DNA of 64,000 bases. Origin: an uncultured Thermoplasmatales archaeon. GTDB lineage: Archaea; Thermoplasmatota; E2; DHVEG-1. Shown in pieces: positions 14,709-40,562 of the stretch. The stretch's first letter is position 1. Each line of letters begins with the position of its first letter. Location of the stretch: NCBI GenBank assembly GCA_964636235.1, contig CAZWQV010000004.1, forward strand, positions 3,257 to 67,256, written 5' to 3'. A program made the translations under genes and the position numbers. The notes under the pieces are model-generated. The model was not told the origin of the DNA. It made no database searches and worked only from the letters and a program-made list of their open reading frames with translations.

Positions 14709-16232
14709 ATGACGGTTATATTAAACGGATCTGGACTAACTATTGAAAAACTTGTAAAAATAGCTCGTTTTAAAGAAAAAGTTAAACTTGATGATCAAGC
14801 CATAAAAAGAATAATTAAATGTCGGAAACTAGTTGAAAAAAAGATAGCTGATAAAGAAATAATGTACGGAATCAATACAGGTATAGGAGAATTTTCCGAG
14901 ATTGTATTAAACGATGATCAGATTAAACAATTTCAAAAATATCTTATTTATAACCATGCAGCGGGTATTGGTGATCCAGCACCTATTGAATACATTCGTG
15001 GAGCGATGGCTGCTCGAATAAATGTACATGCACATGGTCAATCAGGAAATCGTATTGAAATCACCAAAACATTAGTAGAAATGTTGAATAAAGATGTCGT
15101 TCCATATGTTTGTCAAAAAGGAAGTGTGGGTGCTTGTGGCGATCTTGCACCTATGTCCCAGATAGCACTTTTACTGCTTGGTGAAGGAAAAGCGTATTAT
15201 GACGGTGAATTACTACCCGGAAAAAAAGCCATGGAGAAGGCGGGCATTATGATTCCCGGCCTTCATGCACGGGATGGTCTTGCAGTAATAAATGGATGTA
15301 ATGTATTAACAGCGATGAGTGCAATTTTTTTATATGATGCAAATCGATTTTTAAAACAGGCTGAAATCGCCGCTGCTATGAGTCTTGAAGCGTTAAAAGC
15401 GAATATGAAGCCATATACCCCAAAACTTCATGAGGCTCGAGGATTTCCAGGGGCTATTCGAAGTGCAAATGCTATCTGTAAATTAATAACAGGTGGAGAT
15501 TTACAGAAAGAAAAGATACAATGTAAGGTGCAGGATGCCTATAGCATGCGTTCTACTCCGCAAGTTATTGGTGCTGCTCATGATGGCATTCGATGGGCAA
15601 AAGAGCAAATAGAAATTGAACTAAATGGCGTAGGTGATAATCCTGTTTTTTTCCCGGAAGAGAAGTTACAATTATCTGGTGCTAATTTCCAAGGAACTCC
15701 AGTTGGTTTACCGATGGATATGGCAGGCACAGCGATTACCATGGTTTGTATATTAAGTGAAAGACGGATGAATCGGTTGAATAATCCAGCCTTAAATGTT
15801 GGATTGCCTGCCTTTTTAACTAAAGGGGCTGGAATGTTTTCAGGTTTAATGCTTAGCCAATATACTGCTGATCATCTTATTGTTGAACAAAAACTTCTCT
15901 CGTCACCTGCATCAATTCAGTCCATTCCGGCTGCTGCAGATCAAGAGGATTTTGTATCAATGGCTATGAATACTGCCATTAAAAATATGCAGATATTGGA
16001 AAATGCTTATGGAATATTAGGAATTGAATTTATGGCAGCAGCTCAAGCATTAGATTTTAGAGAGTATCATTTCGGCAAAGGTGTACATACCGCGAAAGAA
16101 ATTGTCAGGTCCTATGTAGATTTTCTTGATGAGGATCGTCCATTATATCCTGATCATACAAAAATGAGAGAACTTGTAAAATCATGCGAGATCCTAGAAG
16201 CCGTAGAGAAAAAAATCGGCCCATTAGAATGA
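14709..16232 (+). CDS. hutH: Histidine ammonia-lyase (MIO-dependent aromatic amino acid ammonia-lyase family)
   Basis: Collinear with HAL (GSVGAxGDLAP, NGCN, etc.). GGGGAG SD. 507 aa. The MIO triad reads Ala142-Cys143-Gly144. Confidence 0.8.
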   Translation: MTVILNGSGLTIEKLVKIARFKEKVKLDDQAIKRIIKCRKLVEKKIADKEIMYGINTGIGEFSEIVLNDDQIKQFQKYLIYNHAAGIGDPAPIEYIRGAMAARINVHAHGQSGNRIEITKTLVEMLNKDVVPYVCQKGSVGACGDLAPMSQIALLLLGEGKAYYDGELLPGKKAMEKAGIMIPGLHARDGLAVINGCNVLTAMSAIFLYDANRFLKQAEIAAAMSLEALKANMKPYTPKLHEARGFPGAIRSANAICKLITGGDLQKEKIQCKVQDAYSMRSTPQVIGAAHDGIRWAKEQIEIELNGVGDNPVFFPEEKLQLSGANFQGTPVGLPMDMAGTAITMVCILSERRMNRLNNPALNVGLPAFLTKGAGMFSGLMLSQYTADHLIVEQKLLSSPASIQSIPAAADQEDFVSMAMNTAIKNMQILENAYGILGIEFMAAAQALDFREYHFGKGVHTAKEIVRSYVDFLDEDRPLYPDHTKMRELVKSCEILEAVEKKIGPLE

Positions 16233-17887: not shown

Positions 17888-18182
17888 AATAGTCGTTGTG
17901 AATAAATTTGTAGTATATTTGATTTTGGACCGATCACTTTACTATCGTAATTCAAGTTTTTTTATTATTGAGGATAAAATGATTTTAGGATAAACCAAAG
18001 TTTAAAAAAATGGGTAAAGAATAAATAATATTATGTTATGGAATGATACGAGAGGTGCTCATTTCATTGGAAATATTTCCATATGGACATTAAATCTTAT
18101 AAAATATTTCATTATACTGATATTTACTTTCGAAGATTAATGATTATAAATTGTATGTTTACGATAGGAAGATTGTGATACA

Positions 18183-19385
18183 ATGGATTTGAAACAGGAA
18201 AGAATTACTACCTTACATCAGTTTAATGTCAATAAAAAAACATTATTTAAAACAGTTAGCGATTGTACTATAGAGCGTCCTGTATCTGTTGTTATGCCTA
18301 TGTTATATAGAGAAATAACAAGTGACGCTCTAATTAACATAAAAAAAGGATTAAATAAATGTACCTTCTTAAATGAGATAATTATTCCTTTAGCTGCACA
18401 AAATAATAAAGAATTCAACCATGTTAAAAAATTTTTCTCAGATTTACAAATCCCTCATTTAATCATGTGGTGTAATGGTCCAAAAATAGATCAACTCCTG
18501 TATGATTTACAAAATGAGGGTATTAATCTTCAAAAATATAGGGGAAAAGGAAGAGATGTTTGGCTTGCATTGGGAATTGCTGCATTACGTTCATATGCTG
18601 TCGCATTGCACGATGCAGATATTATGTTATATGATGAAACGATTCCAGCCAAATTAGTTTATCCCCTTGTTGAACCTGAGTTAGAATTCAAATTTAATAA
18701 AGGATATTATGCTCGAGTAAATACGGAAAAGGGAATTATGTATGGTCGAGTTGTTCGGTTATTTTTATATCCCTTACTTGAAGCATTTGTAACAAAACAA
18801 CAATGTCAATTACATTTTGTTGAATTTTTACAATCATTTCGATATCCATTATCCGGAGAGTTTGCCTTAACAAGTGACCTGGCTCGAGATGTTGATATTC
18901 CTGGAAATTGGGGTCTTGAGATTGGTATCATGGCAGAAATGTTTCGAAATGTCATTACAAAACGAATATGTCAGACGGATTTAGGCTTTTATGATCATAA
19001 ACATCAGTCAATTGGCAATGAAGACCAAGGTCTGGTTAAAATGGCAGGTGATATCCTTGAAACTCTTTTACGGGTTCTCATTGAAGAAGATCAAGTTGAA
19101 ATATCATCTGAGTATCTTATTGCAATAAGAGTGCTCTATCAACGATTTGCACAGGATTATATTAGAAAATATCATGCTGATGCTCATTTCAATAATCTCA
19201 ATTATGATCGACATATTGAGGAGCAAATGGTAGAAGAATTCAGTAAGCAAATCGTTATTTCAGGTGAACATTATTTGAAAAATCCTGTTGGAGCACGAAT
19301 CCCTGATTGGCTTCGAACGATATCAGCCCGAAAAAAAATACGAGAACAATTATTAGATATTGTGATGATTGATAATGAAAAATAG
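18183..19385 (+). CDS. GT-A retaining glycosyltransferase, glucosyl-/mannosyl-3-phosphoglycerate synthase-like (GT81/GT55-like), paralog 1
   Basis: RGKGRDVWLALGIA resembles the GpgS GKGEALWRGL motif. Also a DAD (DxD) motif and PLSGEFALTSDL resembling GpgS PLSGEYAASRELL. Confidence 0.55.
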   Translation: MDLKQERITTLHQFNVNKKTLFKTVSDCTIERPVSVVMPMLYREITSDALINIKKGLNKCTFLNEIIIPLAAQNNKEFNHVKKFFSDLQIPHLIMWCNGPKIDQLLYDLQNEGINLQKYRGKGRDVWLALGIAALRSYAVALHDADIMLYDETIPAKLVYPLVEPELEFKFNKGYYARVNTEKGIMYGRVVRLFLYPLLEAFVTKQQCQLHFVEFLQSFRYPLSGEFALTSDLARDVDIPGNWGLEIGIMAEMFRNVITKRICQTDLGFYDHKHQSIGNEDQGLVKMAGDILETLLRVLIEEDQVEISSEYLIAIRVLYQRFAQDYIRKYHADAHFNNLNYDRHIEEQMVEEFSKQIVISGEHYLKNPVGARIPDWLRTISARKKIREQLLDIVMIDNEK

Positions 19386-19409
19386 TATGAGGAAAGGTGG
19401 GATGAAGAA

Positions 19410-20690
19410 ATGAATCAAGAATGGAATAAAGATGTATGTTTACAACAAGATACTGCAGAAAAAGCAAAACAGATGAGAGATATTGATATAATGGTTGGCG
19501 TCTTATGTAAAGATGTTGAAACCACCGTGTTGAATGTATTAAATGTTGTCAACGAAGGCTTATATAAATATTTTCCAGATTATAACATGGCGATAGTAGT
19601 ATCAAAAGCAAAATCAACAGATAATACTGATGGGGCGATTAATTTATTTCATCCTTATAGTAATATACAATTTCTGGTAGCAGATGATATCACTTCTGGT
19701 GGAAAAGGAGCGGGGGTTATGACTATCTTTGAAATAGCAAATCAAGCCAATGCAAAATGTGTATTGCTCATGGATGGTGATTTACTTAGTATTAAACCAG
19801 AATGGATTCAAATGATGGCAAATCCAATTGTCTATGGGCGATCTGATCTTACAGTCCCTTATTATATTAGAGATAAAAACGATGGAGTGATTACCAATAA
19901 TCTGGTATATCCATTTACTCGAACACTTTATGGGGTAGATATTAGACAGCCTATTGCAGGTGAATTTGCATTATCTAAAAATCTTTATGAACTACTGAGA
20001 AATCATCCATTGTTTCCTCCTGATTTCGGTATTGATATTTTTATTGTGACCTGTGCAGCTGCTGAAGGTTTTTATGTAAAAGAAGGACTTTTTTCATTAA
20101 AAATCCATGAATCCACTATGCACTATCTGAAACCTGAAAAATTTTTAATACCTATGTTTCGCAAAGTTACGAAAAGCATGTTTGAACTTGCAAAATATTA
20201 TGAAGCATATTGGAAAAAAAAGCCAAATCGATGGTTTTCCAAACATCCACGTGATAATTTCAGTAAACAACCAATTCCCGTCAAGGTAAACATCTATGAA
20301 ATGCATAATTCATTCAATAATGAATATCTAGCTTCAAAAGAGGTCATGAATCGATTTTTACCTAATGAGATCATGGATTTGGTTGAAAATGTTGTTCATC
20401 ATGATGCGGATTTTAATGCTGAATTATGGACAAAAGTCGTGTTTCATTATGCTGCATCATACCGAAATTTAACGAATGATGCTGAAATTTATTCACTATT
20501 GGATACCTTGAAAACATTATGGCTTGGCCGATTTGTCAGTTATGCAAAACAAGTGGAACATATGGATATTAGTCAAGCGGAAAAAGTTATTCAATCTCAA
20601 GCTGATGTCTTTGAGAATAATTTTGAGTATTTAAAAAATATATATGCTGATGAATCTCAACTTACTATGCTAGATTCGAACAATGAGTAA
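19410..20690 (+). CDS. GT-A retaining glycosyltransferase, GpgS-like (GT81-like), paralog 2
   Basis: SGGKGAGV, a DGD motif, and PIAGEFALSKNL. Paralogous to the upstream gene. GGTGG SD. Confidence 0.5.
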   Translation: MNQEWNKDVCLQQDTAEKAKQMRDIDIMVGVLCKDVETTVLNVLNVVNEGLYKYFPDYNMAIVVSKAKSTDNTDGAINLFHPYSNIQFLVADDITSGGKGAGVMTIFEIANQANAKCVLLMDGDLLSIKPEWIQMMANPIVYGRSDLTVPYYIRDKNDGVITNNLVYPFTRTLYGVDIRQPIAGEFALSKNLYELLRNHPLFPPDFGIDIFIVTCAAAEGFYVKEGLFSLKIHESTMHYLKPEKFLIPMFRKVTKSMFELAKYYEAYWKKKPNRWFSKHPRDNFSKQPIPVKVNIYEMHNSFNNEYLASKEVMNRFLPNEIMDLVENVVHHDADFNAELWTKVVFHYAASYRNLTNDAEIYSLLDTLKTLWLGRFVSYAKQVEHMDISQAEKVIQSQADVFENNFEYLKNIYADESQLTMLDSNNE

Positions 20691-20702
20691 CGTAGGATTA
20701 AT

Positions 20703-21320
20703 ATGAAGATTTATGCCGCTGCGGATATTCATGGAGCTCAGTTCCGAGTTAATGAAATGATAGATGCCATAACTGCCAATAAACCGGATATTACTGTAAT
20801 TTGTGGTGATATCACCCAGTTTGGCCCGGGGGATATGGCATATTATATTCTTAATCAACTACCAGAACCCATCCTTGTTGTGCCTGGAAATATTGATACC
20901 GAAGATGTAAACCAAGGAATACAACGCAGCAAGGCAATTAATATTCAATTTCAAAGATATGACTTAAAAGGTATTTCGTTTTTAGGTTTGAACGGAGTAT
21001 CGGAACGACAAACAAATGCTTTTTATGATTATGAAGATAATAAAAAATTATTTTCTCATTTGGATGTCCTGGTCACTCATGTTCCCCCATATGGTTTTCA
21101 AGATACTATCTTTCTTGGAAAACATGGGGGAAGTAAAGCATTGCTTACAATTATAAATGAGATCCACCCGAGATTAGTTCTCTGTGGCCATATTCATGAA
21201 AATCCAGGATTCATGAAAAAGAATGATCTTACGGTTATTAATTGCAGTATGGGTAAAAGAGGTAAGGGTGCTATTGTGACCATAGAAAAAGATGATATAT
21301 CTGTTGAGATGATTAGTTAG
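20703..21320 (+). CDS. Metallophosphoesterase (calcineurin-like, YfcE/MJ0936-like)
   Basis: Motifs DIHG, GDITQ, GNID, THVPP, GHIHE. 12 nt after the preceding GT gene, so probably the same operon. Confidence 0.7.
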
Positions 21321-23004
21321 CTTTTTTGGTTTGTTGTTGAATCTTTTTCCAAGTATCTTTTAATGATACTGTTCGATTGATGATGAGATGGGTGGCTGTC
21401 GAGTCAGGGTCAATACAGAAATATCCTTTCCGTTCGAATTGAAATCGGTCAAATGCTTGTAATGATTTGATTGCTGGCTCTACTTTACAATTTTTTAGAA
21501 TTTTTAATGATTCTGGGTTTAAAAATGTTTTAAAGTCTTTTTGTTTATCCGCAGTTGGTTCAGGCACTGTAAATAACCGATCGTATAATCTAATTTCAGC
21601 ATCACAAGCATGGGCAGCTGAAACCCAATGAATGGTTGCTTTGACTTTTCGACCATCCGGTGCATATCCCCCTTTCGTTTCAGGATCAATGGTACAATGA
21701 AGTTCGGTTATTTTATCTTCAGTTTTTTTAACATCATTGCAGGTGAGATAATATGCATAACGTAACCTAATTTCTCTCCCAGGGGCTAGTCGATAGAATT
21801 TTTTAGGGGGATTTTCCATAAAGTCTTCTTGGTCGATGAAAATTTCTTTTGAAAATGGGATATTGCGTGTTCCCGCATTCGTATCTTCTGGATTATTTAT
21901 TGCCTCTAATTCTTCAAAACCAGCCTCTTCATAATTATCAATAATCACTTTTAATGGGTGAAGAACTCCCATAAAGCGAGATGCTGTTTTATTAAGATCT
22001 TCTCTAACACAATGTTCAAGAAAATCAATATCAATAGTACTATTAACTTTTGCAACCCCAATTCGTTTGGAAAAATTTCGTATTGATGATGGGGAATATC
22101 CTCTTCTTTTCATTCCACTTATAGTTGGCATTCGGGGGTCATCCCAACCATTGACATAACTACCATCAACCAATTCTTTTAACATTCTTTTACTCATAAT
22201 AGTAAACGACAGATTCAACCTTGCAAATTCAATTTGTTGCGGATGGTAAACTTCTAATTGATCAAGAAACCAATCGTATAAGGGTCGATGATTTTCAAAT
22301 TCTAAGGTACAGATAGAATGTGTTATTTTCTCAATCGAGTCTTCTAAACCATGAGCCCAATCATACATTGGATAAATACACCATGAATCCTTAGTGTTAT
22401 GATGAGACTCATGAAGAATTCTATAAATGATTGGATCTCTCATATTAATATTAGGATGAGCCATATCGATTTTAGCTCTAAGTACTTTCTCACCATTTTC
22501 AAATTCCCCCTGTTTCATCCGTACAAAAAGATCTAGATTTTCTTCAATTGAACGATTTCTATAGGGGCTGTTTATACCTGGTTGAGTAAGACTTCCCCTT
22601 GTTTTACTTATTTCATCTGGTTGTTGATCATCAACATAGGCTTTACCTTTTTTAATTAAATCAATAGCATAGGTGTACATCTGATTAAAATAATCTGAAG
22701 CAAAATAGAGTCTATCCCCCCAATCAAATCCTAGCCATCTTACGTCATTAATAATTGATTGAACGTATTCATCTGTTTCCTTCACGGGGTTTGTGTCATC
22801 AAACCGAAGATTACAGAAACCATTATAATCTTCTGCAATACCAAAATTCAAACAGATTGATTTTGCATGACCGATATGCAAATAACCATTTGGTTCAGGA
22901 GGAAATCTCGTATGAACTCTCCGATTATATTTATTTGTTTTAATGTCTTCATCAATGATATCACGAATGAAATCTTTTTGTTTTTCTGAATCATCCATAC
23001 TCAA
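21313..23004 (-). CDS. glnS: Glutamine--tRNA ligase (bacterial/eukaryotic-type GlnRS)
   Basis: Long collinear stretches match E. coli GlnRS as I recall it: [57 protein letters not shown], and the C-terminal anticodon-binding barrels. HIGH and MSK class I motifs are present. Confidence 0.85.
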
Positions 23005-23437: not shown

Positions 23438-24778
23438 ATGATAAAAAAGAAATTGAGTATCTTAGATATTTTTATTAACTATTGTTACTTATTACTATAT
23501 AAAAAGGGGATAATCGTGAACGGTTTAAATAGAAAGAAAGCTTTTATTATTTTATTATTTACAATTTTTATTATTCCAAGTGTTCCAAGCTATGCCTCTG
23601 ATTCAGCTGATCAATCTTCATTAAGTACACATACTGTACTTGTTGAAGTGGCATCATCTCAGGGATGCTCTGGTTGTAGTAGTTGGAATGCGATAATTAA
23701 TAATGAATTTTTAAATGGCATTTATGATTTTGAATTTGTGGAAATGATTGTATATGATCATTTATGGGATGTATTGAATAATGTAACCTATGATTGGAAT
23801 GAAATGTTTGGAATATCAAGCTACCCCACATCAGTTTTTGATGGTGGATTTGATTTTCTTATAGGTAGTAATCCCACGAATTTACCTGAAGTTTTAGAAA
23901 ACAGTCAGAATAGAACAGTATCGGATATTGATGCGCAAATTCAAGTATTATGGTATCACCCTGCTACATTGAAAGTCAGTATCAACATTACCAACAATGA
24001 ACCTTATACATATGATGGTTCCATCCGTTCTCATATAGCAGAAATAGAATCTCGATATTCTACATCACAAGGCCATTTCTATCATAATGGTTTCCTGGAT
24101 TTTGCGTTTAATAAAAATATCTCTATTCCTCCCTATGGATCATATACTGATACAAAAAGTTGGGACGCAACGTTACATAAAGATGCCCATGGAGATTCAT
24201 TTGGTGATATTGAAAAAGATAATATCAAAGTTTACTTAACAGCTTTTGATAAGAATGGATTATGTGATGAGGTTGTTATCACTCAACCGGTCTACGCTCC
24301 TCAGTATGAAGAAATAAACCAATCTGTACATAATAGAGGATTTCCAATCCGTCATGCTGCTGATGGTGATTGGGGTGCTGCTCAGAATTTTACATCAACA
24401 CAGGATTCGCTAAGTAGTATGCAGATTTATCTTCGTAAATTTGGAACTCCTGAATTCAATTTAAGTATTGAATTACATGAAGATGCGATTACTGGACCAA
24501 TTGTGGAAACCTTTACATTTACGCCAAGTGAAATTCCCAGTTCTTGGAAATGGCTCTCATTAAATATGACCAATGATACAGTTGTGAATGGAAAAAAGTA
24601 TTTTATCACCATTCCACCAGCAACATCTGGAATATCTACCTCATTTGGTTATGAATGGGGTTATGCATTTGGAAACCAATACGACAACGGTGCATTCTGG
24701 TTCACTCGTGACGGAGGAAACTTATGGAGAGATCTTCCGACCATGTATGAATTTACCTTTAAAACTTTTAGATATTAA
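23438..24778 (+). CDS. Secreted hypothetical protein (signal peptide; CxxC pair near the N-terminus)
   Basis: 446 aa ORF. A more likely start is GTG at 23516 (AGGGG SD 6 nt upstream), which gives MNGLNRKKAFIILLFTIFIIPSVPSYA. No family recognised. Confidence 0.45.
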   Translation: MIKKKLSILDIFINYCYLLLYKKGIIVNGLNRKKAFIILLFTIFIIPSVPSYASDSADQSSLSTHTVLVEVASSQGCSGCSSWNAIINNEFLNGIYDFEFVEMIVYDHLWDVLNNVTYDWNEMFGISSYPTSVFDGGFDFLIGSNPTNLPEVLENSQNRTVSDIDAQIQVLWYHPATLKVSINITNNEPYTYDGSIRSHIAEIESRYSTSQGHFYHNGFLDFAFNKNISIPPYGSYTDTKSWDATLHKDAHGDSFGDIEKDNIKVYLTAFDKNGLCDEVVITQPVYAPQYEEINQSVHNRGFPIRHAADGDWGAAQNFTSTQDSLSSMQIYLRKFGTPEFNLSIELHEDAITGPIVETFTFTPSEIPSSWKWLSLNMTNDTVVNGKKYFITIPPATSGISTSFGYEWGYAFGNQYDNGAFWFTRDGGNLWRDLPTMYEFTFKTFRY

Positions 24779-24899: not shown

Positions 24900-25991
24900 C
24901 TATTTTTCAAGGAAAATCGTTTGAGTTGGAAATGCCATCTCAATTCCTTCCTTTTCAAACGCTGCTTTCATATCAAGGTTAATCTGCTGTTGAATATCCA
25001 TATATTTTGCGTAATCTTGACTATTGATATAATAGACGATTTCAAATTTAAGACTGAAATCACCAAATTCTTTAAAATGTATCCGGTCAACTTTTGTAAG
25101 TTCGATATTTTCTATTATTTTTCTTACCATCTCGGGTATCTTCTTTAGTTTTTCAGAAGGTGTTCCGTATACAACACCAAAACCGAAACTAATTCGTCTT
25201 TTTCTCATTTTTTTGAAATTCCGAACATTTGTTGTAGTCAAAACGGAATTAGCTAAAACCAGTTCTTCACCCTGTAATAATTGAACCCGGGTCGATTTCA
25301 TACCAATTTTTTTTACAGTTCCAGAATAATCTCCGACAACAATGAAATCTCCTATTTCAAACGGTTTATCAAAATAGATAGAAAAAGCGCTAAATAGATC
25401 ACTTAAAACATTTTGTAAGGCAAATGCAATTGCAATCCCGCCAACTCCAAATCCGACAACTATTCCAGATAAATTAACATTGAATATATATAAAATTACA
25501 AAAAATGCGATTAGATAGATAAAGGCATTTATAATTTTCTTTAGAACAAATAAGATATGTTCACTCATACTTTTTTTTGCACTTTTTTTAGAATACCATG
25601 CAAAAAGAACATTAACAACTCTCGTAATAACAAATGTAATCAGTAAAATTTCAGCAATGGTAAATATTATTCGAATGTATTCTTGATAATTATTAAGTAT
25701 TTCAAAGGCACTTATTCCAAAATAAATACCGACTAAAATAACAAAAAAATAAATCGGTTTTTTGATGTTTTTTAATATTTCATCATCCAGTGTGGTTTTT
25801 GTTTTTTCTGCCCATCTACAAAAATATCGTTCGAAGATATGATAGACAATCCATCCTAGTATAATAAATGATACAAAAATACTAATCGCAGTTATAGATT
25901 GAATTATTATGGGGTCCGCATTTATACCAATACTTCTGAAAAAAGATTCAACGATTTCTAATGTATTTGTACTAATATTCATATGAATCAT
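24900..25991 (-). CDS. Small-conductance mechanosensitive channel (MscS family)
   Basis: N-terminal TM helices plus the MscS beta-domain signature ...GTVKKIGMKSTRVQLLQGEELVLANSVLTTTNVRNF. Confidence 0.75.
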   Translation of the reverse strand: MIHMNISTNTLEIVESFFRSIGINADPIIIQSITAISIFVSFIILGWIVYHIFERYFCRWAEKTKTTLDDEILKNIKKPIYFFVILVGIYFGISAFEILNNYQEYIRIIFTIAEILLITFVITRVVNVLFAWYSKKSAKKSMSEHILFVLKKIINAFIYLIAFFVILYIFNVNLSGIVVGFGVGGIAIAFALQNVLSDLFSAFSIYFDKPFEIGDFIVVGDYSGTVKKIGMKSTRVQLLQGEELVLANSVLTTTNVRNFKKMRKRRISFGFGVVYGTPSEKLKKIPEMVRKIIENIELTKVDRIHFKEFGDFSLKFEIVYYINSQDYAKYMDIQQQINLDMKAAFEKEGIEMAFPTQTIFLEK

Positions 25992-26050: not shown

Positions 26051-27697
26051 TTATAACATAGGCATATGTAGATCTGATTTTTTCACTACATCAATAGCTT
26101 CTTTATATCCTGCATCCGCATGTCTAATAACACCTATTCCAGGGTCTGTCTTAAATACTCTTTTTATACGTTCATCTGTTTCTTTCGTTCCATCACAAAC
26201 TACTACCATCCCTGCATGAGTAGACAGGCCAATACCAACTCCTCCACCATTGTGGATTTGGACATTATCAGCGCCTGCTGCACAATTTAATAAGGCATTT
26301 AATAACGGCCAATCAGCAATAGTATCGCTTCCATCCTTCATCCGTTCGGTTTCTCTATAGGGGGATGCAACACTGCCAGTATCTAAATGATCCCTTGTAA
26401 TAGCAATTGGGCCAATTTCACCATGCCTAATCAATTTATTAATTCCAAGCGCAAATTTTTCTCGTTCCTCATATCCAAGCCAACAAACTCGTGCAGGCAG
26501 CCCCTCCCATGGAAGATGTTTTTCGGCCAAATTAATCCAATTTGATAAAATAGTATCCATTGGAAACATATTCATTACTAGTCTATCTGTTTTCAGGATA
26601 TCCTCTGGATTTCCAGTTAATGAAAGCCATCTAAAAGGTCCGCGCCCGACACAAAGCATGGGGCGTACATAAGCGGGAACAAAACCGGGGTAATTAAAAG
26701 CATTTTTAAGTCCTGCTTTTTGTGCTTGGCCTCTTAAATTATTACCATAATCAAATACAATACTTCCCTTTTTCTGAAAATCAATCATTGCTTGACAGTG
26801 GATTTTCATACTTTTCAGTGATTCTTTCTTATATGCTTTTGGATCAGATGTACGTAATGCTATTGCTTTATCAAGACTATTGCCATAATATCCTGCAGGA
26901 ACATAACCGTTTAGTTCGTCATGAGCAGAGGTTTGATCAGTTACAATATCAGGCTGGAATCCTTCCTTAACCAATTGTGGAAGCACATCTGCACAATTTC
27001 CTAACAGTCCAATTGCTATTGCATTTCCACGTTGTTTTTCTTTTTCAGCCATATCAATTGCTTCATGAATATCTGCTATCTTTTTATCACAAAATCCTGC
27101 TTTTATTCTCCTATCTATCCGTTTTTCATCACATTCAACATCGATACAAATACCACCGGCCATTTTCACTGCTAATGGTTGAGCACCTCCCATACCACCC
27201 ATACCACCAGTTAAAACAATTTTTCCTTTCAGGTTCTTATTAAAATGTTTTTTTGCTAGAGCTGAAAATGTCTCATATGTTCCTTGAATTATGCCCTGTG
27301 TTCCAATATAACACCATGAACCTGCAGTCATCTGACCGTACATAGTTAGCCCTAATTTTTCCAGCTCATTAAACTTATCCCAATTACTCCAATGAGGAAC
27401 AATATTTGCATTTGCCATTAGTACTCTTGGCGAATTTTCCCACGTTCTAAAAACACCAACTGGCTTGCCTGATTGAATAATAAGCGTTTCATCATTTTCT
27501 AATGACTGTAATGTTTGAACAATTTTATCATAACATTTCCAATTTCTTGCTGCCTTTCCCGTTCCACCATATATAATTAAATCTTCTGGTAATTCAGCAT
27601 TTTCTAGATTATTTTCAAGCATTCGAAGAATCGCTTCTTGTTTCCAACCTTTACAGCGTAATGTTGTTCCTCTTGCAGCTTTTATTTGTTTCCCCAT
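26051..27697 (-). CDS. hutU: Urocanate hydratase
   Basis: 548 aa. Urocanase N-terminus (RGTTLRCKGWKQEA...) and a GGMGGMGGAQP NAD-binding glycine-rich loop. Confidence 0.8.
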   Translation of the reverse strand: MGKQIKAARGTTLRCKGWKQEAILRMLENNLENAELPEDLIIYGGTGKAARNWKCYDKIVQTLQSLENDETLIIQSGKPVGVFRTWENSPRVLMANANIVPHWSNWDKFNELEKLGLTMYGQMTAGSWCYIGTQGIIQGTYETFSALAKKHFNKNLKGKIVLTGGMGGMGGAQPLAVKMAGGICIDVECDEKRIDRRIKAGFCDKKIADIHEAIDMAEKEKQRGNAIAIGLLGNCADVLPQLVKEGFQPDIVTDQTSAHDELNGYVPAGYYGNSLDKAIALRTSDPKAYKKESLKSMKIHCQAMIDFQKKGSIVFDYGNNLRGQAQKAGLKNAFNYPGFVPAYVRPMLCVGRGPFRWLSLTGNPEDILKTDRLVMNMFPMDTILSNWINLAEKHLPWEGLPARVCWLGYEEREKFALGINKLIRHGEIGPIAITRDHLDTGSVASPYRETERMKDGSDTIADWPLLNALLNCAAGADNVQIHNGGGVGIGLSTHAGMVVVCDGTKETDERIKRVFKTDPGIGVIRHADAGYKEAIDVVKKSDLHMPML

Positions 27698-28328: not shown

Positions 28329-29396
28329 ATGACCGATGGAAAAATTATACATGTCGTGGGAACAGGAACAATAGGGGAACCTTTAATTGGATTATTATGT
28401 GATGCCAAAAAAGATCTTGGCATTGATGAAATAACTTTTTATAAACATTCAGCAAAAGAAATTGATAGACCTAAAATAAAAGGGTTAGTCAATCGAGGAG
28501 CTGAGTTATGTGTAAGTGAAGGAAAAATTAAAGATTTCCAAGAGCTTGGCGTAGAACCAGTTTATAATTCTGAAGAGGCAATTAAAAGAGCAGATGTAGT
28601 TATTGATTGCACTCCAAAAGGAACTGGCTTAATGAATAAAGAAAAATATTATAATAAATTTAAAAAAAAGGGAAAAGGATACATTGCTCAGGGTTCTGAA
28701 TTTGGTTTTGGAAAAATGTATGCAGTTGGAATTAATGATGAAGTTATAGATCCTAAAGATCAATTTATTCATGTTGTTAGCTGCAATACACATAATATTG
28801 CGGTATTGATTCATACACTTGCTATGGAAAATAAAAAAAATCATCTTAAAGAAGGAAAATTCCTTTGTATTCGTCGAGCAAATGATATCAGTCAGGTAAA
28901 AAGCTTTGTTCCTTCACCTGAGGTTGGTACACATAAAGACCCGCAAATGGGCACTCACCATGCTGTTGATGTTTATCATCTTTATAAAACGCTTAATATT
29001 GATCTTAATGTGTTCTCAAGTGCATTAAAACTGAATACACAATATATGCATTGCATATGGTATAATTTAAAGTTGGATAAAAAAACTTCTAAAGAAAAAG
29101 TAATTGAAAAATTTATTGAAAATCCACGAGTGGCTGTCACTCAGAAACAAGCTGCTAATCTTGTTTTTTCATATGGTCGAGACCATGGCCATTATGGTAG
29201 AATTCTTAATCAGACTGTAGCGGTTCTTCCCTCTGTTCACGTGATAAATGATAATGAAATATTTGGATTTTGTTTCACTCCTCAAGATGGTAATTCCATT
29301 ATGAGCAGTATTACTATGGCGATGCGTTTTCTTTATCCTGATTCATATACGGATTATATGCAGTGTCTTGATGTATTCTTATTGCAGGAAGTATAA
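28329..29396 (+). CDS. gap: Glyceraldehyde-3-phosphate dehydrogenase, archaeal type II
   Basis: N-terminal GTGTIGEPL Rossmann motif, catalytic VVSCNT, plus RRAND and THHAVDV motifs. GGGGAGG SD 8 nt upstream. Confidence 0.75.
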   Translation: MTDGKIIHVVGTGTIGEPLIGLLCDAKKDLGIDEITFYKHSAKEIDRPKIKGLVNRGAELCVSEGKIKDFQELGVEPVYNSEEAIKRADVVIDCTPKGTGLMNKEKYYNKFKKKGKGYIAQGSEFGFGKMYAVGINDEVIDPKDQFIHVVSCNTHNIAVLIHTLAMENKKNHLKEGKFLCIRRANDISQVKSFVPSPEVGTHKDPQMGTHHAVDVYHLYKTLNIDLNVFSSALKLNTQYMHCIWYNLKLDKKTSKEKVIEKFIENPRVAVTQKQAANLVFSYGRDHGHYGRILNQTVAVLPSVHVINDNEIFGFCFTPQDGNSIMSSITMAMRFLYPDSYTDYMQCLDVFLLQEV

Positions 29397-32407: not shown

Positions 32408-32659
32408 TCATATTTTTTTTCTATCAAAAAGAATGGTGTTGTTAAGTTTAATTTTAAAAATTCGATGATGTGGTATGGTTGCATCATTGGTTTGTAAAAA
32501 AGTTTTGTCAATTGAAATAATTTCTTTTCCAGTTATTATTTTTGTATTGTTTTGTGCTCCTCGATGAATATACCAGATTTCAACATCCTCTAGGTTTTTT
32601 TGATTCCATTTTAATTCATTAAGTATCTCTCTTATTTTATTCATGTCAGATTCAGCCAT
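32408..32659 (-). CDS. Small conserved hypothetical protein (possibly MJ1316/DUF504-like)
   Basis: 83 aa with IWYIHRG and IPHHRIFKI motifs. Overlaps the start of the downstream MBL gene by 8 nt (coupled). Family assignment tentative. Confidence 0.3.
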   Translation of the reverse strand: MAESDMNKIREILNELKWNQKNLEDVEIWYIHRGAQNNTKIITGKEIISIDKTFLQTNDATIPHHRIFKIKLNNTILFDRKKI

Positions 32660-33386
32660 ACATTTTAATATTTTGATAGGATGATCTTATATGTAAATTA
32701 CCTTCTCCTTCAACGATATTTTCATGGCCAGGATATAAATTCTGGATATCATATGTTGTTAATTTTTTAATTGAGTTGATTAATTGCTGAGTACTTCCTC
32801 CTGGAAAATCAGTTCGTCCAAAGGATCCATTTGAAAAGACCGTATCGCCTGAAAATAATGTTTTATTTTCCTTGTTATATAAACAAATGCAACCTGGCGT
32901 GTGACCTGGGGTATGAATGCAAAGATATGAATCATCTCCAATAATTAATTGTTCTTCACCTTTGAGTTTTTGATCAACAGAAATTTTTGGCATTTTCCCA
33001 CCAAGCATGTGAGCAAAAATACTTACGCCGCGCTCTATTTTTTCTGATGCTAATTGATGGGCAAAAATTTCTGGTCGGGAACCAATCATTTCAATCATTT
33101 TTTTTCCCCCTCCACAATGATCGTAATGTTCATGAGTTAGAATAATTTGTTGAATGGTTGAAGGATCAACAATCTTTCTAATTTGTGATTCAATACGTTG
33201 ATGAAAAAGCCCTGTTCCACAATCAATAATTGTAGATTTCCTTCCTGTTACCAAATAAACATTTGAGTCATATTTATATCCTTGAATTACATAGATGGTC
33301 ATATAATTGAGACTGATAATTTCACCACTACATAAGAATATCGGAACAATAGATATTTTATTTTTTAATATTAAGCATACTGGCAC
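32652..33386 (-). CDS. Metallo-beta-lactamase fold hydrolase
   Basis: THEHYDHCGG (HxHxDH) motif and a downstream His/Asp pattern. Confidence 0.65.
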   Translation of the reverse strand: MPVCLILKNKISIVPIFLCSGEIISLNYMTIYVIQGYKYDSNVYLVTGRKSTIIDCGTGLFHQRIESQIRKIVDPSTIQQIILTHEHYDHCGGGKKMIEMIGSRPEIFAHQLASEKIERGVSIFAHMLGGKMPKISVDQKLKGEEQLIIGDDSYLCIHTPGHTPGCICLYNKENKTLFSGDTVFSNGSFGRTDFPGGSTQQLINSIKKLTTYDIQNLYPGHENIVEGEGNLHIRSSYQNIKMYG

Positions 33387-36329: not shown

Positions 36330-36455
36330 GATTTGTAAATCAGTACAAAATAATAAATATGTTAGGTTTTTTGTAGGTAAGTAATTTTTCTTCTATTCTA
36401 ATTGGAGGGTAATATTTTTATACATATGTTGCTTCCCTTCTTCAGGAGGCAATTG

Positions 36456-37403
36456 ATGAAAGATTCTCATATTCTTGTTACTGGGGGAGCAGGTTTTATT
36501 GGTTCAAATTTAGTTCAAAGACTTGTTGAACAACAAAACAAAGTTGTGGTTATTGATAATCTTTCCACTGGAAAATTGCATAATATTAAACCTTTCATAG
36601 ATGATCAATCCATTCAATTTATAAAAGGAGATATTACCAATTATTCAAGGGTATTAGAAACAATAGAAAAATATAATATAACGCATATTTTTCATTTGGC
36701 TGCGCAGGTAAGTGTTCCATTAAGTGTGGAAAGGCCAAGAGACACACATGAGATTAATGTGAATGGAACCGTTAACGTGTTGCAAGCAGCAAAAAATCAA
36801 CATGTCCAAAAAGTAGTATTTAGTAGTTCATGTGCAGTTTATGGAAATAACAACCAGGAAAATGCAATAAAAGAAACTGATGTAACTCAACCATTAAATC
36901 CCTATTCATTAAGTAAACTTATAGGTGAACAATATTGCTCTCTTTATTCTTATTGTTTCAATCTACCTTGTGTATCATTACGATATTTTAATGTCTATGG
37001 TCCTAAACAAGATCCAGATGGAGAATACGCTGCAGTCATTCCGAAATTTATAGATAGGTTACAATCTAAACATGCACCAATTATTTATGGCAATGGGGAT
37101 CAAACAAGGGATTTTGTCTATATTGATGATGTTGTAAATGCAAATTTATTAGCTGCAGAGAAAGATATACAAGGAATTTTTAATATCGCAACAGGCAAAC
37201 AAACTTCTATTAGAGAACTTGCCCTAACAATCATGAGAGAAATGGATGATTTTTACGATCCTGTTTACATGAATCCTCGATTATGTGAGATATATCATTC
37301 TATTGCAAACATTTCAAAGGCATCAATAGAGATTTCATATGAGATTACCCATCCTCTGGATAAAGGGATAAGGAAGACAATTGAATGGTTTAATAAAAAT
37401 TAA
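36456..37403 (+). CDS. NAD-dependent nucleotide-sugar epimerase/dehydratase (UDP-sugar 4-epimerase-like SDR)
   Basis: GGAGG SD 6 nt before the ATG at 36456. TGGAGFIGS Rossmann motif and a YxxxK catalytic dyad (YSLSK). Confidence 0.75.
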   Translation: MKDSHILVTGGAGFIGSNLVQRLVEQQNKVVVIDNLSTGKLHNIKPFIDDQSIQFIKGDITNYSRVLETIEKYNITHIFHLAAQVSVPLSVERPRDTHEINVNGTVNVLQAAKNQHVQKVVFSSSCAVYGNNNQENAIKETDVTQPLNPYSLSKLIGEQYCSLYSYCFNLPCVSLRYFNVYGPKQDPDGEYAAVIPKFIDRLQSKHAPIIYGNGDQTRDFVYIDDVVNANLLAAEKDIQGIFNIATGKQTSIRELALTIMREMDDFYDPVYMNPRLCEIYHSIANISKASIEISYEITHPLDKGIRKTIEWFNKN

Positions 37404-38558: not shown

Positions 38559-39560
38559 ATGACAGAACATCGATTACTTCCATGGCATATTATTCTTTGT
38601 TTTGGATGGTGCATCTTCTATTATATTTTATACCTATTCAATGGAAGCACTCTTCGGATCCTTTTTGGAATACCCTTTCTTTTTTTCATTCCTGGTTTTC
38701 TATTTATATTAAGTTTATTTCCTTCATCCCGCATTGATAAAAAAATAAATTTGTTTGAAAGGTTGGTACTAAGCATTGTTTTTTCTTTGGCCATTGTTTC
38801 TCTTATTGGTATTGGTCTAAATTTTACTCAATTAACCCTATCTCTTTTTTGGTTTGCAACGTTTCTCCTTGGGTTTAATATCTCTTTTAGTATTATTTCA
38901 TTATTGAGATGGTATCAACAAAAACCTACTGAAAGATTTATCATAATTTTACCGAAAAAAATTAAAAAAGTACGAAAACCGTTTGAATCTGTGTTAAATA
39001 TTATTCTTTTCCTAGTTGCTCTTTCTACCTTTATCGTGATAATTTATGTTACTATTTCTTCGTTTGTATTGTTATCTGAAAGAGGCGAATTTTTTACTGA
39101 ATTTTATATACTTGGAGAAGGAAAAAATGCAAACAACTATCCTAAAAATATTACCGTTGGAATCCCTCAGTCATTAACAATTGGTATTACAAATTATGAA
39201 AAGGAAGCGATGGATTATACTATTGAAGTATGGTTAATTAATCAAAGTACAGATTCTGATCAAAATCAAAACAATACTCATTCTATATATTATGAGATGT
39301 ATTTTCTTAAAAAAATAGAAGTATTTTTGCCTGTATACACACTAGAAGTTGAAAACTTATCAAATCCACAGTGGCAATATCAATATCAATTCAATATCAG
39401 CAATTTATCTGGTCGATATAAAATGCAATTTCTCCTATATGATCATTCCACGGATGATTATTATAAGGATAAAAACTATTATTATATAGCAGATGAAAAG
39501 ATTGGTACTGCCTATCGATCTTTACATCTATGGATGAATATTATTGATGATTCATTATAA
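38559..39560 (+). CDS. Membrane protein of archaeal glycosylation clusters (DUF1616-like), tentative
   Basis: N-terminal multi-TM region then an extracytoplasmic domain with several N-x-S/T sequons. Confidence 0.35.
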   Translation: MTEHRLLPWHIILCFGWCIFYYILYLFNGSTLRILFGIPFLFFIPGFLFILSLFPSSRIDKKINLFERLVLSIVFSLAIVSLIGIGLNFTQLTLSLFWFATFLLGFNISFSIISLLRWYQQKPTERFIIILPKKIKKVRKPFESVLNIILFLVALSTFIVIIYVTISSFVLLSERGEFFTEFYILGEGKNANNYPKNITVGIPQSLTIGITNYEKEAMDYTIEVWLINQSTDSDQNQNNTHSIYYEMYFLKKIEVFLPVYTLEVENLSNPQWQYQYQFNISNLSGRYKMQFLLYDHSTDDYYKDKNYYYIADEKIGTAYRSLHLWMNIIDDSL

Positions 39561-39584: not shown

Positions 39585-40562
39585 GTGAATAAAAATATTG
39601 TTTTTTTAGCAAAATTACCTGACACTTTATTGTCTTGGTTATCTCTTCAAATTTTTCGTGAAAAACCGTCCTTGATTATTTTCACCCTACATGGATTATT
39701 TCAAAATGAAAAAGAGATGCTTTTAAATCATGTTGATCCACAATTGGGTATTACTTTACATCATTTCGAACAATTTATTCGCTATTTTTTACAATCGGAT
39801 TATCAATTTATTTCACCAATTGATCTTAATAATGGTTTAGATCCAGAAAAATATTATATCATGCTTACCTTCGACGATGGCTATTATAATAATACTTATG
39901 CTCTAAAATATCTTAAAAAATATCAAATTCCTGCTTCATTTTTTATATCTATGGATCATATATTAAATCAAAAATGTTTCTGGTGGGATGTTCATTATAG
40001 ACGGAGAAAACAACAAGGATTTTCTACCTCTCAGATTCTTATTGAGCAAGATCAATTGAAATCATTATCAAATGCATCTATTGAAAAAAAGCTTATCAGT
40101 TGGTTTGGCAAAGATGCTTTTCATTCATTTGGGAATATTGATAGACCTTTTTCAATAGAAGAATTAAAATCTTTCGCTGCAGAACCTTTGGTTCATATTG
40201 GAAATCATACCAAAGACCATTCGATTTTGACGAATTTAACTGAACAGGAAATTAAAAATCAAATAGTAATAACTCAAGATTTCCTAAAAGAAATAACAGG
40301 TGGTTATCCAATAATGATTTCCTATCCAAATGGTAATTATTCTGAAAAAATAATATCAATTTCAAATAAGGCAGGGTTGAAAATAGCTTTTACAACAGAT
40401 GAAAGGAAAAACTATATGCCTTTCCAGAATATTTCATCAACAAAGTTACTGCATCGATTTGATTTAACAGAGAATGATATAATACTTCGTCAATGTATGT
40501 TATCTAGATCTGACATAGTACTTTATAGACTGTTGATTAAATTAATAAAAAGAAAATATTAA
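39585..40562 (+). CDS. Polysaccharide deacetylase (NodB homology domain)
   Basis: NodB motifs TFDDGY and ...H... Typical of glycan clusters. Confidence 0.6.
   Translation: MNKNIVFLAKLPDTLLSWLSLQIFREKPSLIIFTLHGLFQNEKEMLLNHVDPQLGITLHHFEQFIRYFLQSDYQFISPIDLNNGLDPEKYYIMLTFDDGYYNNTYALKYLKKYQIPASFFISMDHILNQKCFWWDVHYRRRKQQGFSTSQILIEQDQLKSLSNASIEKKLISWFGKDAFHSFGNIDRPFSIEELKSFAAEPLVHIGNHTKDHSILTNLTEQEIKNQIVITQDFLKEITGGYPIMISYPNGNYSEKIISISNKAGLKIAFTTDERKNYMPFQNISSTKLLHRFDLTENDIILRQCMLSRSDIVLYRLLIKLIKRKY

Follow-up and report, generated by a model that had tools for sequence, protein, structure and literature searches.

A probable dual-route glucosylglycerate-type gene cluster beside a metallophosphoesterase gene in an uncultured Thermoplasmatales archaeon

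The window analysed here, a 64,000-nucleotide stretch of one contig from an uncultured Thermoplasmatales archaeon, contains a cassette of three ORFs whose sizes and order are as an earlier note on this DNA had described them (Table 1). ORF1 and ORF2 are separated by 24 nt, and ORF2 and ORF3 by 12 nt. At its 3' end, ORF3 overlaps by 8 nt with a convergent aminoacyl-tRNA synthetase gene. An assignment of the latter as GlnRS was dropped; it encodes a class-Ic Glu/Gln-type enzyme (PF00749), which we take to be most likely the archaeal GluRS. A TTATAAAT box is present at 18144-18151, 32 nt ahead of the ORF1 ATG, but as the genome is only 32% GC this box tells little.

Table 1. Features of the cassette and its surroundings, in window coordinates.
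Feature	Position	Strand	Size	Remark
PheT-ORF1 intergenic gap	17888-18182		295 bp	PheT gene on - strand
ORF1	18183-19385	+	400 aa	From ORF listing
ORF2	19410-20690	+	426 aa	From ORF listing
ORF3	20703-21320	+	205 aa	From ORF listing
Class-Ic aminoacyl-tRNA synthetase gene	21313-23004	-		Convergent with ORF3
MscS-family mechanosensitive channel gene	24900-25991	-		Recurrent cassette neighbour

ORF1 matched the NCBIfam model GpgS_Meth (NF040724) from end to end (E 9e-169, 561.5 bits; residues 1-399 of 400 on model positions 1-400 of 402). Its score falls below the curated cut-off of 700; ORF1 is clearly homologous over its full length but does not reach the range trusted for equivalogs, and for this reason the identity of its exact substrate is not guaranteed. 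The same match makes the length of ORF1 normal for its family, and the long C-terminal extensions that the earlier note had singled out in both glycosyltransferases are no oddity, as Rhodothermus mannosylglycerate synthase (MGS), with its helical C-domain, is 382-397 aa long. Of the GpgS/MPGS hallmarks ascribed to both proteins, ORF1 has the complete set (G121-K-G-R-D-V-W127, D144-A-D146 and P222-L-S-G-E-F-A228), whereas those of ORF2 are weaker (G98-K-G-A-G-V-M, which lacks the Trp, D122-G-D124 and P181-I-A-G-E-F-A187). Mycobacterial GpgS structures matched ORF1 at 1e-7 with the GKG, DxD, PLSGE and His272 regions aligned, such that K122, D144-A-D146, P222-L-S-G-E226 and H272 line up with the corresponding mycobacterial residues; K122, D144/D146, PLSGE and H272 are invariant among 17 family members. 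ORF1 is also 43% identical to a bacterial 402-aa GpgS-like protein encoded next to an MpgP-type phosphatase. By these criteria ORF1 is a Methanococcoides-type GpgS homologue, predicted to carry out the first step of a two-step route.

The relationship of ORF2 to ORF1 is more distant than the word 'paralogous' in the earlier note implies. A profile-profile comparison did relate the two (97.5% probability, E 6e-12), with the alignment confined to the GT-A domain and an identity of 19%, and BLASTP aligned nothing more than the PxxGEFA stretch (E 0.003); judged from sequence, ORF2 is only a remote relative of ORF1. The GpgS model PRK13915 matched ORF2 at E 4e-7, which, like the matches of the other two ORFs to their families, is far beyond chance. 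A Pfam scan of ORF2 gave nothing above threshold and Pfam MGS_GT (PF21969) was not matched, its relatives scoring 23.6-25.3 bits against that model, under the gathering score of 27. An AF2 model built with 20 close homologues had a pLDDT of 61 and left residues 139-249 unmodelled, and an 80-sequence alignment, which gave a pLDDT of 93.5, was used instead. With this model the best PDB match in Foldseek was Rhodothermus MGS (E 6e-14, 403-408 aligned columns, TMq 0.68-0.71, TMt 0.76-0.80), whereas just ~260 columns were aligned with GpgS. The ORF2 family profile likewise matched MGS at 2e-20, over MGS residues 36-365, versus GpgS at 5e-15. Both AF2 and Foldseek give ORF2 two domains, a GT-A domain followed by a C-terminal helical domain. 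Residues K99, D122/D124, R154, I161/T162 and H233 align with MGS K76, D100/D102, R131, I138/T139 and H217, and all of these except K99 were at least 90% conserved among 80 ORF2-family members. Thr139 and Ile138 of MGS are carboxylate contacts (PMC2581804). The family comprises 1248 MGS-like representative clusters at E <= 0.001; JGI labels four members (P0002, P0047, P0488 and P0513) 'glucosylglycerate synthase', although such source-given names are automatic labels at most. Collectively these data point to ORF2 as a one-step NDP-hexose:D-glycerate glycosyltransferase of the MGS/Ggs type.

Scanning genome contigs by very specific peptide patterns returned the same archaeal clade only, and more distant relatives were obtained by a representative search together with a profile search. 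Among 74 related loci that could be assessed, 70 have ORF1 5' of ORF2, and the pair occurs in three flanking contexts (PheT, PriL-Tmk and CTP synthase); this part of the arrangement is thus conserved, and extends to distant bacteria. Four loci have ORF2 but no ORF1, which is consistent with a self-sufficient one-step enzyme. Eight relatives carry a GT4 gene between ORF1 and ORF2, with none there in the window. Distant bacterial loci (L167-L172) combine GpgS-like, MpgP-family HAD and ORF2-like genes with MscS genes that adjoin the ORF2-family gene, the HAD proteins scoring 225-259 bits against TIGR01486 (cut-off 164.75), and one bacterial locus also has OsmC and glycerate 2-kinase-like genes. 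Most archaeal loci have an MscS-type gene within a few kb of the cassette; in L054 it is immediately 3' of ORF2 (by Pfam), and L053, L056 and L072 have convergent genes of MscS size in that same position. A gpgS/ggs/phosphatase/MscS module is widespread in bacteria, and this locus corresponds to it in archaea; MscS is not an enzymatic part, but its recurrence as a neighbour supports an osmolyte role.

That ORF3 is a calcineurin-like phosphoesterase was borne out. It matched Pfam PF00149 (Metallophos) at 2e-17 (64.7 bits, cut-off 21.5) as well as PF12850 and PF14582, and its motifs are intact (D8-x-H10, G35-D36, G62-N63, H126 and G162-H-x-H165), with D8, H10, D36, N63, H126, H163 and H165 invariant in 21 orthologues. 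Only metallophosphoesterase (MPE) models were matched, and there was no match to the MpgP-family HMM, to HAD DxD motifs or to the RHG motif of histidine phosphatases; JGI names this type 'Icc-related predicted phosphoesterase'. ORF3 is probably co-transcribed with ORF2 in the window species. Conservation of the full three-gene arrangement does not go beyond one clade, as the MPE gene, which entered the locus once, adjoins ORF2 in a single archaeal clade (34 loci). An opposite-strand VIT1-like gene separates ORF2 from the MPE in L017 and L029, and does so in 9 of 50 metagenome loci with ORF2 upstream. The MPE is also retained where both glycosyltransferases are absent, either next to PheT (L082/L105 and L096) or beside a HAD gene (L109 and L124), and about a dozen orthologues (50-54% identity) have unrelated upstream neighbours, TopoVI, UbiA-like and LeuRS-like genes among them. 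Bacterial versions of the cluster lack an MPE and have a canonical MpgP-type HAD instead. ORF3 is thus most likely a resident or bystander of this neighbourhood rather than a dedicated member of the pathway.

Of the loci with ORF1, 59 could be assessed on both flanks, and 39 of these have a HAD-IB gene that either lies 7-29 nt 5' of ORF1 or overlaps it. The order in L076, the closest distinct relative of the window species, is PheT(-), HAD (212 aa), ORF1, ORF2 and MPE, and 17 of the 34 MPE-bearing loci, this one included, have the HAD gene directly 5' of ORF1. Linkage of ORF1 to a putative HAD-type GPG/MPG phosphatase, present in relatives, is absent in the window: neither a HAD-IB match across its 64 kb nor a decayed HAD remnant in the PheT-ORF1 gap was found, and five independent metagenome contigs of the species all lack the gene. 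The window species therefore has a clean deletion of a HAD gene found in most relatives. ORF1 is nonetheless under strong purifying selection, with a dN/dS of 0.04 (versus L076), compared to 0.10 for ORF2 and 0.12 for ORF3. The gene is missing from 17 of 34 MPE-bearing loci versus 3 of 25 without an MPE, with at least four separate losses inside the MPE-bearing clade against about two outside, and as locus counts are not phylogenetically independent this tracking of HAD loss with MPE presence is suggestive but not decisive. L050 and L070 keep ORF1 with no HAD or MPE gene linked to it, and L047 has only a divergent HAD-like stretch. The archaeal HAD-IB protein, which is SerB-like (110-140 bits versus a cut-off of 144), would be the GPG phosphatase partner of ORF1 in these relatives; because of that score, and because it survives beside the MPE where the glycosyltransferases have been lost, it might instead be a housekeeping phosphoserine phosphatase and not a GpgP.

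The cassette finds its closest parallels among known glucosylglycerate systems. A Persephonella marina cluster, ggs-gpgS-gpgP, was reportedly described by Fernandes et al. in 2007, and Methanococcoides burtonii is said to use a two-step glucosylglycerate pathway (attributed to Costa et al., 2006). By gene types the window resembles the former in having, alongside a ~400-aa GpgS of the Methanococcoides/Persephonella type, another GT-A enzyme that is of the one-step synthase type, and relatives of the window species likewise encode a HAD phosphatase alongside. Unlike in P. marina and M. burtonii, the phosphatase linked in the archaeal clade is a SerB-like HAD-IB rather than an MpgP-type HAD-IIB, the window species has no linked HAD gene, and window ORF1 is under the NCBIfam equivalog cut-off. 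ORF2 shares with MGS from Rhodothermus marinus (GT78; PDB 2BO4 and 2Y4J-M) the whole two-domain architecture, a metal site formed by DxD and a His, and the glycerate-carboxylate contacts (Arg and Ile-Thr), but at just 15-16% identity. Both ORFs have the GT-A core and the GKG, DxD and PLSGE-like motifs of mycobacterial GpgS (GT81; PDB 4Y6N and 7P5L), which unlike them is ~325 aa long and lacks C-terminal domains; its partner is the histidine-phosphatase GpgP (Rv2419c), and the window locus has no histidine-phosphatase gene. The MGG pathway of Petrotoga mobilis and Rhodopirellula baltica (GpgS, MggA and MggB) also joins GpgS to an adjoining second glycosyltransferase gene. There, however, MggA and MggS are GT4 (GT-B) enzymes and R. 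baltica MggB is a HAD-like hydrolase (PMC3736172), in contrast to the MGS-like GT-A enzyme ORF2 and the metallophosphoesterase ORF3.

With moderate confidence, we read the locus as a dual-route glucosylglycerate-type cluster of known kind, with one route served by an unlinked phosphatase, one single-step route, and the MPE as a bystander. ORF1 would convert NDP-glucose and 3-phosphoglycerate to glucosyl-3-phosphoglycerate, which a phosphatase would then dephosphorylate, whereas ORF2, acting on free D-glycerate in a single glycosylation step, would need no phosphatase. Either glucose or mannose could be the donor. GgS is described as joining ADP-glucose directly to D-glycerate (PMC3736172). The phosphatase partner would be the SerB-like HAD-IB in archaeal relatives and the canonical MpgP-type HAD-IIB in bacteria. 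In the window species, where the HAD gene is deleted while ORF1 remains strongly selected, dephosphorylation would fall to an unlinked phosphatase or, with lower probability, to the adjacent MPE, which holds its chromosomal place with or without the glycosyltransferases. A glycosyl-glycerate solute function for both glycosyltransferases, as the earlier note had suggested, is well supported.

The proposal in that note of the MPE as the pathway phosphatase did not fare well. In its strongest form the MPE would have displaced the lost HAD gene as GPG phosphatase, becoming a third, evolutionarily unrelated GpgP class after the HAD and histidine types, and there is precedent in that GpgP function arose more than once (PMC3240985). 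The close spacing behind ORF2, intact active-site motifs in a gene under selection, the persistence of ORF1 after HAD loss and the excess of HAD losses within the MPE clade all fit such a replacement, and a search for a hidden phosphatase in the 20 other window ORFs found none. Still, we regard it as quite unlikely given that a single entry of the MPE into one clade was followed by retention of the HAD gene in half of its loci, that ORF1 persists in loci with neither phosphatase, and that the MPE is interrupted from ORF2 by an opposite-strand gene in several lineages, outlives both glycosyltransferases, occurs beside unrelated genes and is missing from the bacterial clusters. The other departure from the dual-route reading is a two-sugar product, whereby ORF2 would attach another hexose to GPG or GG, forming a glucosylglucosyl- or mannosylglucosyl-glycerate that the MPE or HAD dephosphorylates. 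In Persephonella no genes are known for glucosylglucosylglycerate synthesis, making an unassigned GT-A enzyme conceivable; ORF1 and ORF2 are tightly linked in archaea and bacteria alike, and the intervening GT4 gene of eight relatives means that this type of locus can host extra sugar transferases. We nevertheless consider this product unlikely. ORF2 is of the wrong fold class to be MggA, a GT4/GT-B enzyme as is the other known second-sugar enzyme, MggS (PMC3736172), and its nearest full-length structure is that of the one-step MGS. It matches MGS across both domains, keeps the glycerate-carboxylate residues of MGS/GpgS (R154, I161/T162), stands without ORF1 in four loci and belongs to a family with the automatic JGI name cited above.

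A final possibility is that the product is not an osmolyte at all, and that a glycosylglycerate primes a polysaccharide or glycoconjugate, or that another hydroxy acid is the acceptor. MGS also accepts lactate and glycolate, and a large glycan cluster occupies 36-63 kb of the window. In mycobacteria GG is the primer of MGLP (PMC3240985, PMC2581804). The glycan cluster, however, lies over 15 kb from the cassette and shows no synteny with it in relatives, and the MscS genes found repeatedly next to the cassette in both archaea and bacteria, together with the OsmC and glycerate-kinase-like genes of one bacterial locus, speak for osmoadaptation. So does the habitat of the host organisms, presumably marine or saline sediment archaea, and we judge a non-osmolyte role very unlikely.

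The dual-route reading suggests osmoadaptation by means of a glucosylglycerate-type solute in these uncultured Thermoplasmatota of sediments; a literature search on compatible solutes of Thermoprofundales found nothing relevant. An apparently unusual cassette is thereby explained by a known, widespread cluster, and the understanding of these pathways is unchanged. Of modest interest is that the linked phosphatase of this clade is of the SerB-like HAD-IB and not the classical MpgP type, and has been lost repeatedly. Separately, a metallo-beta-lactamase-fold protein was met at 32652-33386 in the scan of the 20 other window ORFs.

The cassette belongs to an already known kind of system. Its three open reading frames lie where the earlier note had placed them, with 24 nt between the glycosyltransferases ORF1 and ORF2, and the 3' end of ORF3, a metallophosphoesterase (MPE), overlaps a convergent class-Ic aminoacyl-tRNA synthetase (aaRS) gene by 8 nt. 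The general idea of a glycosyl-glycerate solute pathway holds, given a GpgS_Meth-like ORF1, an ORF2 resembling mannosylglycerate synthase (MGS) and neighboring MscS channel genes; none of the features proposed as non-canonical (long C-termini, a second-sugar transferase, an MPE phosphatase) was upheld. Of remaining interest are the clade's HAD-IB type phosphatase with its repeated loss, and the large, little-characterized MGS-like family of ORF2. The window has a GC content of ~32%. Every one of its nearest relatives is an uncultured Thermoplasmatota MAG; among them are 'Thermoplasmatales archaeon SG8-52-3' and 'SM1-50', which belong to Marine Benthic Group D.

Coordinates of features in the window and in related loci (L-numbers)
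Feature	Locus	Position	Strand	Remark
Histidine ammonia-lyase	window	14709-16232	+
ORF1	window	18183-19385	+	400 aa
ORF2	window	19410-20690	+	426 aa
ORF3 (MPE)	window	20703-21320	+	205 aa
446-aa ORF	window	23438-24778	+	hydrophobic N-terminus, Cys-rich segment
MscS	window	24900-25991
Urocanase	window	26051-27697	-
355-aa ORF	window	28329-29396	+
Surface-glycan cluster	window	36402-63304
NAD-dependent epimerase/dehydratase	window	36402-37403		glycan cluster
DUF1616	window	38559-39560		glycan cluster
Polysaccharide deacetylase	window	39585-40562		glycan cluster
Three GT2 genes	window	40790-41713, 41682-42728, 51876-52793		glycan cluster
Two GT4 genes	window	42716-43858, 44045-44998		glycan cluster
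Two FemAB-like/GNAT genes	window	46951-48141, 48936-49961		glycan cluster
Exosortase-family (archaeosortase-like)	window	62073-62615		glycan cluster
HAD-IB upstream of GpgS-like gene	L076; L040; L014	5966-6604; 8125-8778; 5812-6540		also about 36 other loci
GT4 between GpgS-like and ORF2-like genes	L014	7860-9047		~395 aa, opposite strand
GT4, likewise	L035	8508-9704	-	~395 aa, opposite strand; also L039, L042, L043, L049, L051, L063, L033, L125
VIT1/CCC1-like between ORF2 and MPE	L017; L029; L081	4487-4975; 11245-11733; 1576-2064	-	162 aa, membrane protein
Helicase-like between PheT and ORF1	L032; L048	1470-3566; 2978-5035		~690 aa, superfamily 1
Two ORF2-like copies	L058; L073	8718-11862; 8727-11860		same MAG (CAZWZY01)
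Two ORF2-family genes flanking MscS	L167	1-370 and 5001-6290
Glycerate 2-kinase-like next to MpgP-type gene	L172	135-2329		DUF4147/MOFRL

The NCBIfam model NF040724 (GpgS_Meth, the Methanococcoides-type glucosyl-3-phosphoglycerate synthase) spans ORF1 end to end (E 9e-169, 561.5 bits, residues 1-399 against 1-400 of 402), so that the supposed C-terminal extension of ORF1 is simply the ~400-aa family norm; mycobacterial GpgS, by comparison, has ~325 aa and matches ORF1 over the catalytic core at 1e-7. Because the score does not reach 700, the curated cut-off for an equivalog, we regard ORF1, judging from its sequence, as a clear homologue over the full length and probably an orthologue, rather than a certified equivalog. 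The GpgS/MPGS motifs that had been ascribed to both transferases are present in ORF1 (GKGRDVW, DAD, PLSGEFA), but ORF2 carries only degenerate versions (GKGAGVM, DGD, PIAGEFA).

Sequence comparison indicates that the kinship of ORF2 with ORF1 is remote only: BLASTP recovers a 55-residue stretch (E 0.003), and hhalign aligns the GT-A domain alone (97.5% probability, E 6e-12, 19% identity). AlphaFold, given an alignment of 80 diverse members of the family, models ORF2 with high confidence (pLDDT 93.5, pTM 0.92). In the PDB the model comes closest to Rhodothermus marinus MGS, over essentially the full length (403-408 columns, TM 0.68-0.80, E 6e-14), the C-terminus being normal for its own family. 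With GpgS structures the match is restricted to the catalytic domain of ~260 columns (TMq 0.45), and the ORF2-family profile gives the same ranking (MGS 2e-20 over MGS residues 36-365, GpgS 5e-15). MGS works in one step, with free D-glycerate as acceptor. In the profile alignment K99, D122/D124, R154, I161/T162 and H233 of ORF2, all at least 90% conserved within the family, correspond to K76, D100/D102, R131, I138/T139 and H217 of MGS, and I182 to L163; Ile138 and Thr139 contact the glycerate carboxylate in MGS (PMC2581804). Glucosylglycerate synthase (GgS) likewise joins ADP-glucose and D-glycerate in a single step (PMC3736172), and several family members carry the JGI label 'glucosylglycerate synthase'. 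From the MGS-like fold, profile and residues, the one-step reactions of MGS and GgS, and these labels, we infer that ORF2 is a predicted one-step glycosyl-glycerate synthase. A second-sugar role for it, as had been suggested, is ruled out for the MggA type, whose members are GT4 enzymes (PMC3736172), as ORF2 is not.

Two routes can be proposed for the cassette. ORF1 would make glucosyl-3-phosphoglycerate (GPG), from which a phosphatase would yield glucosylglycerate, this being the HAD-IB enzyme in relatives and, in the window species, either an enzyme encoded elsewhere or, with lower probability, the MPE; in a one-step route, ORF2 would glycosylate free D-glycerate. What the analysis shows is the families, the fold, the conserved residues, the gene order, the selection and the loss of the HAD gene; the substrates, the product and the part played by the HAD enzyme are inferred.

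A scan of species-representative genomes gave 72 loci with ORF2 identities of 52-74% over full-length matches, 71 of them from Thermoplasmatota or related uncultured archaeal MAGs and one a 34-residue fragment in a MAG labelled 'bacterium'; seven more were added by exact-protein look-up, and gene order was tabulated with tblastn. ORF1 precedes ORF2 in 70 of the 74 assessable loci and is lacking in 4. Since the pair is found in no fewer than three flanking contexts (PheT(-), PriL-Tmk or CTP synthase upstream), it is conserved in itself, beyond the surrounding synteny; of the three-gene arrangement put forward earlier, this pair stands, but an MPE after ORF2 is confined to one clade. In 8 tabulated loci an opposite-strand GT4 gene separates the pair, recalling the GT4 MggA of the mannosylglucosylglycerate pathway, and is absent from the window cassette. 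One MAG has two ORF2-like copies with no accompanying GpgS-like gene; each copy has a GAPDH gene on its 5' side and a HAD-IA (phosphoglycolate phosphatase/PpaX-like) gene on its 3' side, an arrangement that may constitute a self-contained, glycerate-supplying one-step module.

At E <= 0.001 the ORF2 family comprises 1248 representative clusters, of which 160 remain at E <= 1e-30; many of its members are full-length (~400-430 aa, 27-40% identity), and the profile search found it in MAGs of Deltaproteobacteria, Nitrospirota, Planctomycetota, Acidobacteriota and Aminicenantes. Some members are much longer (P0245, 1179 aa; P0268, 1061 aa; P0358, 1067 aa; P0404/P0407/P0409, 773-777 aa), and P0245 aligns with the query in three places, which suggests that the MGS-like unit has been tandemly duplicated or fused to other domains. 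Three bacterial gene contexts were read: L167-L169 (GpgS-like of 402 aa, MpgP-family HAD, isochorismatase-family gene and ORF2-like, with adjacent MscS and a second ORF2-like gene), L170-L171 (GpgS-like and MpgP-family HAD, divergent from ORF2-like and an MscS-like gene) and L172 (MpgP-family HAD, glycerate 2-kinase-like, GpgS-like, MscS, ORF2-like, MscS-like, then OsmC), where the kinase-like gene connects this cluster with the metabolism of free glycerate. On NF040724 the GpgS-like proteins reach 332-383 bits (that of L167 is 43% identical to ORF1); the HADs reach 225-259 bits on TIGR01486 (cut-off 164.75), and one of them, with 260, passes the osmo_MPG_phos equivalog cut-off of 244.35. The ORF1-ORF2 pairing is therefore old and widespread, with HAD phosphatases and mechanosensitive channels as usual companions. 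With a HAD phosphatase it matches the ggs-gpgS-gpgP arrangement of Persephonella marina, as reportedly described by Fernandes et al. in 2007. MscS genes recur near the archaeal cassette, in the window and immediately 3' of ORF2 in L054, which together with the bacterial clusters supports a compatible-solute role.

In 39 archaeal loci, covering all three contexts, ORF1 is preceded at 7-29 nt, or overlapped, by a HAD gene of ~215 aa. This gene is SerB-like HAD-IB (TIGR00338 at 110-140 bits, just below the cut-off of 144), sitting where a classical MpgP-type HAD-IIB would. The closest distinct relative of the window, L076 (90% identity for ORF1, 81% for ORF2, 72% for the MPE), reads PheT(-), HAD, ORF1, ORF2, MPE, aaRS(-). 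No HAD remnant was found in the 295-bp gap at window 17888-18182, and no HAD-IB match anywhere in the 64 kb; the gene is cleanly deleted in the window species, and since five independent metagenome contigs repeat the HAD-less arrangement, its absence is no assembly artefact. Being SerB-like, and remaining next to the MPE in L109 and L124, which have lost the glycosyltransferases, it could be simply SerB (phosphoserine phosphatase) or a glycerate-supplying 3-PGA phosphatase rather than a new GpgP subtype, which it could also be. In L032 and L048 a helicase-like gene (Walker A GPPGTGKT) fills its usual place.

That the MPE serves as GpgP, dephosphorylating GPG, strikes us as improbable. It is a bona fide calcineurin-like phosphoesterase, as first read (PF00149 at 2e-17, every metal-binding motif intact), with an intact active site, with purifying selection on the gene (dN/dS 0.12) and only 12 nt from ORF2 in the window species, where ORF1 remains tightly constrained (dN/dS 0.04) despite the lost HAD gene; HAD losses, at least six in all, number at least four within the MPE-bearing clade against about two outside, a weak asymmetry. 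However, the ORF2-MPE adjacency had one origin, its 34 loci forming a single clade on the ORF1+ORF2 tree that shares the window's wider synteny; half of them (17 of 34, including L076) also carry the HAD gene, and in L050 and L070 ORF1 is retained with neither phosphatase linked to it. ORF2 and the MPE stand ~600 nt apart in L017, L029, L081 and 8 further metagenome loci, and in the three examined (L017, L029, L081) an opposite-strand VIT1-like gene lies between, so the two are not co-transcribed there.

Among 72 loci with adequate upstream sequence in an MPE-seeded metagenome scan, ORF2 lies upstream in 50. In the other 22 the MPE follows PheT(-) directly, with no glycosyltransferase (L082/L105, L096), a HAD gene (L109, L124), ORF1 (L147, L161) or, in about a dozen others, unrelated genes (TopoVI-like A/B, UbiA-like prenyltransferases and a LeuRS-like gene, assigned from sequence without family search), often keeping the convergent aaRS gene 3' of the MPE as in the window. 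No MPE accompanies the ORF1-like and ORF2-like genes of the distant bacterial loci.

The cassette lies between genes for histidine ammonia-lyase and urocanase, a synteny kept in relatives, several of which (L001, L005, L007, L009, L010) have a second aromatic-lyase paralogue (37-40% identical) adjoining the urocanase gene. Neither the 446-aa nor the 355-aa ORF has a Pfam match; tblastn finds a homologue of the former in L004 only, and the position of the latter beside LSM and HD-domain genes is kept in L001, L076 and L082. Further downstream the window holds a large surface-glycan cluster.
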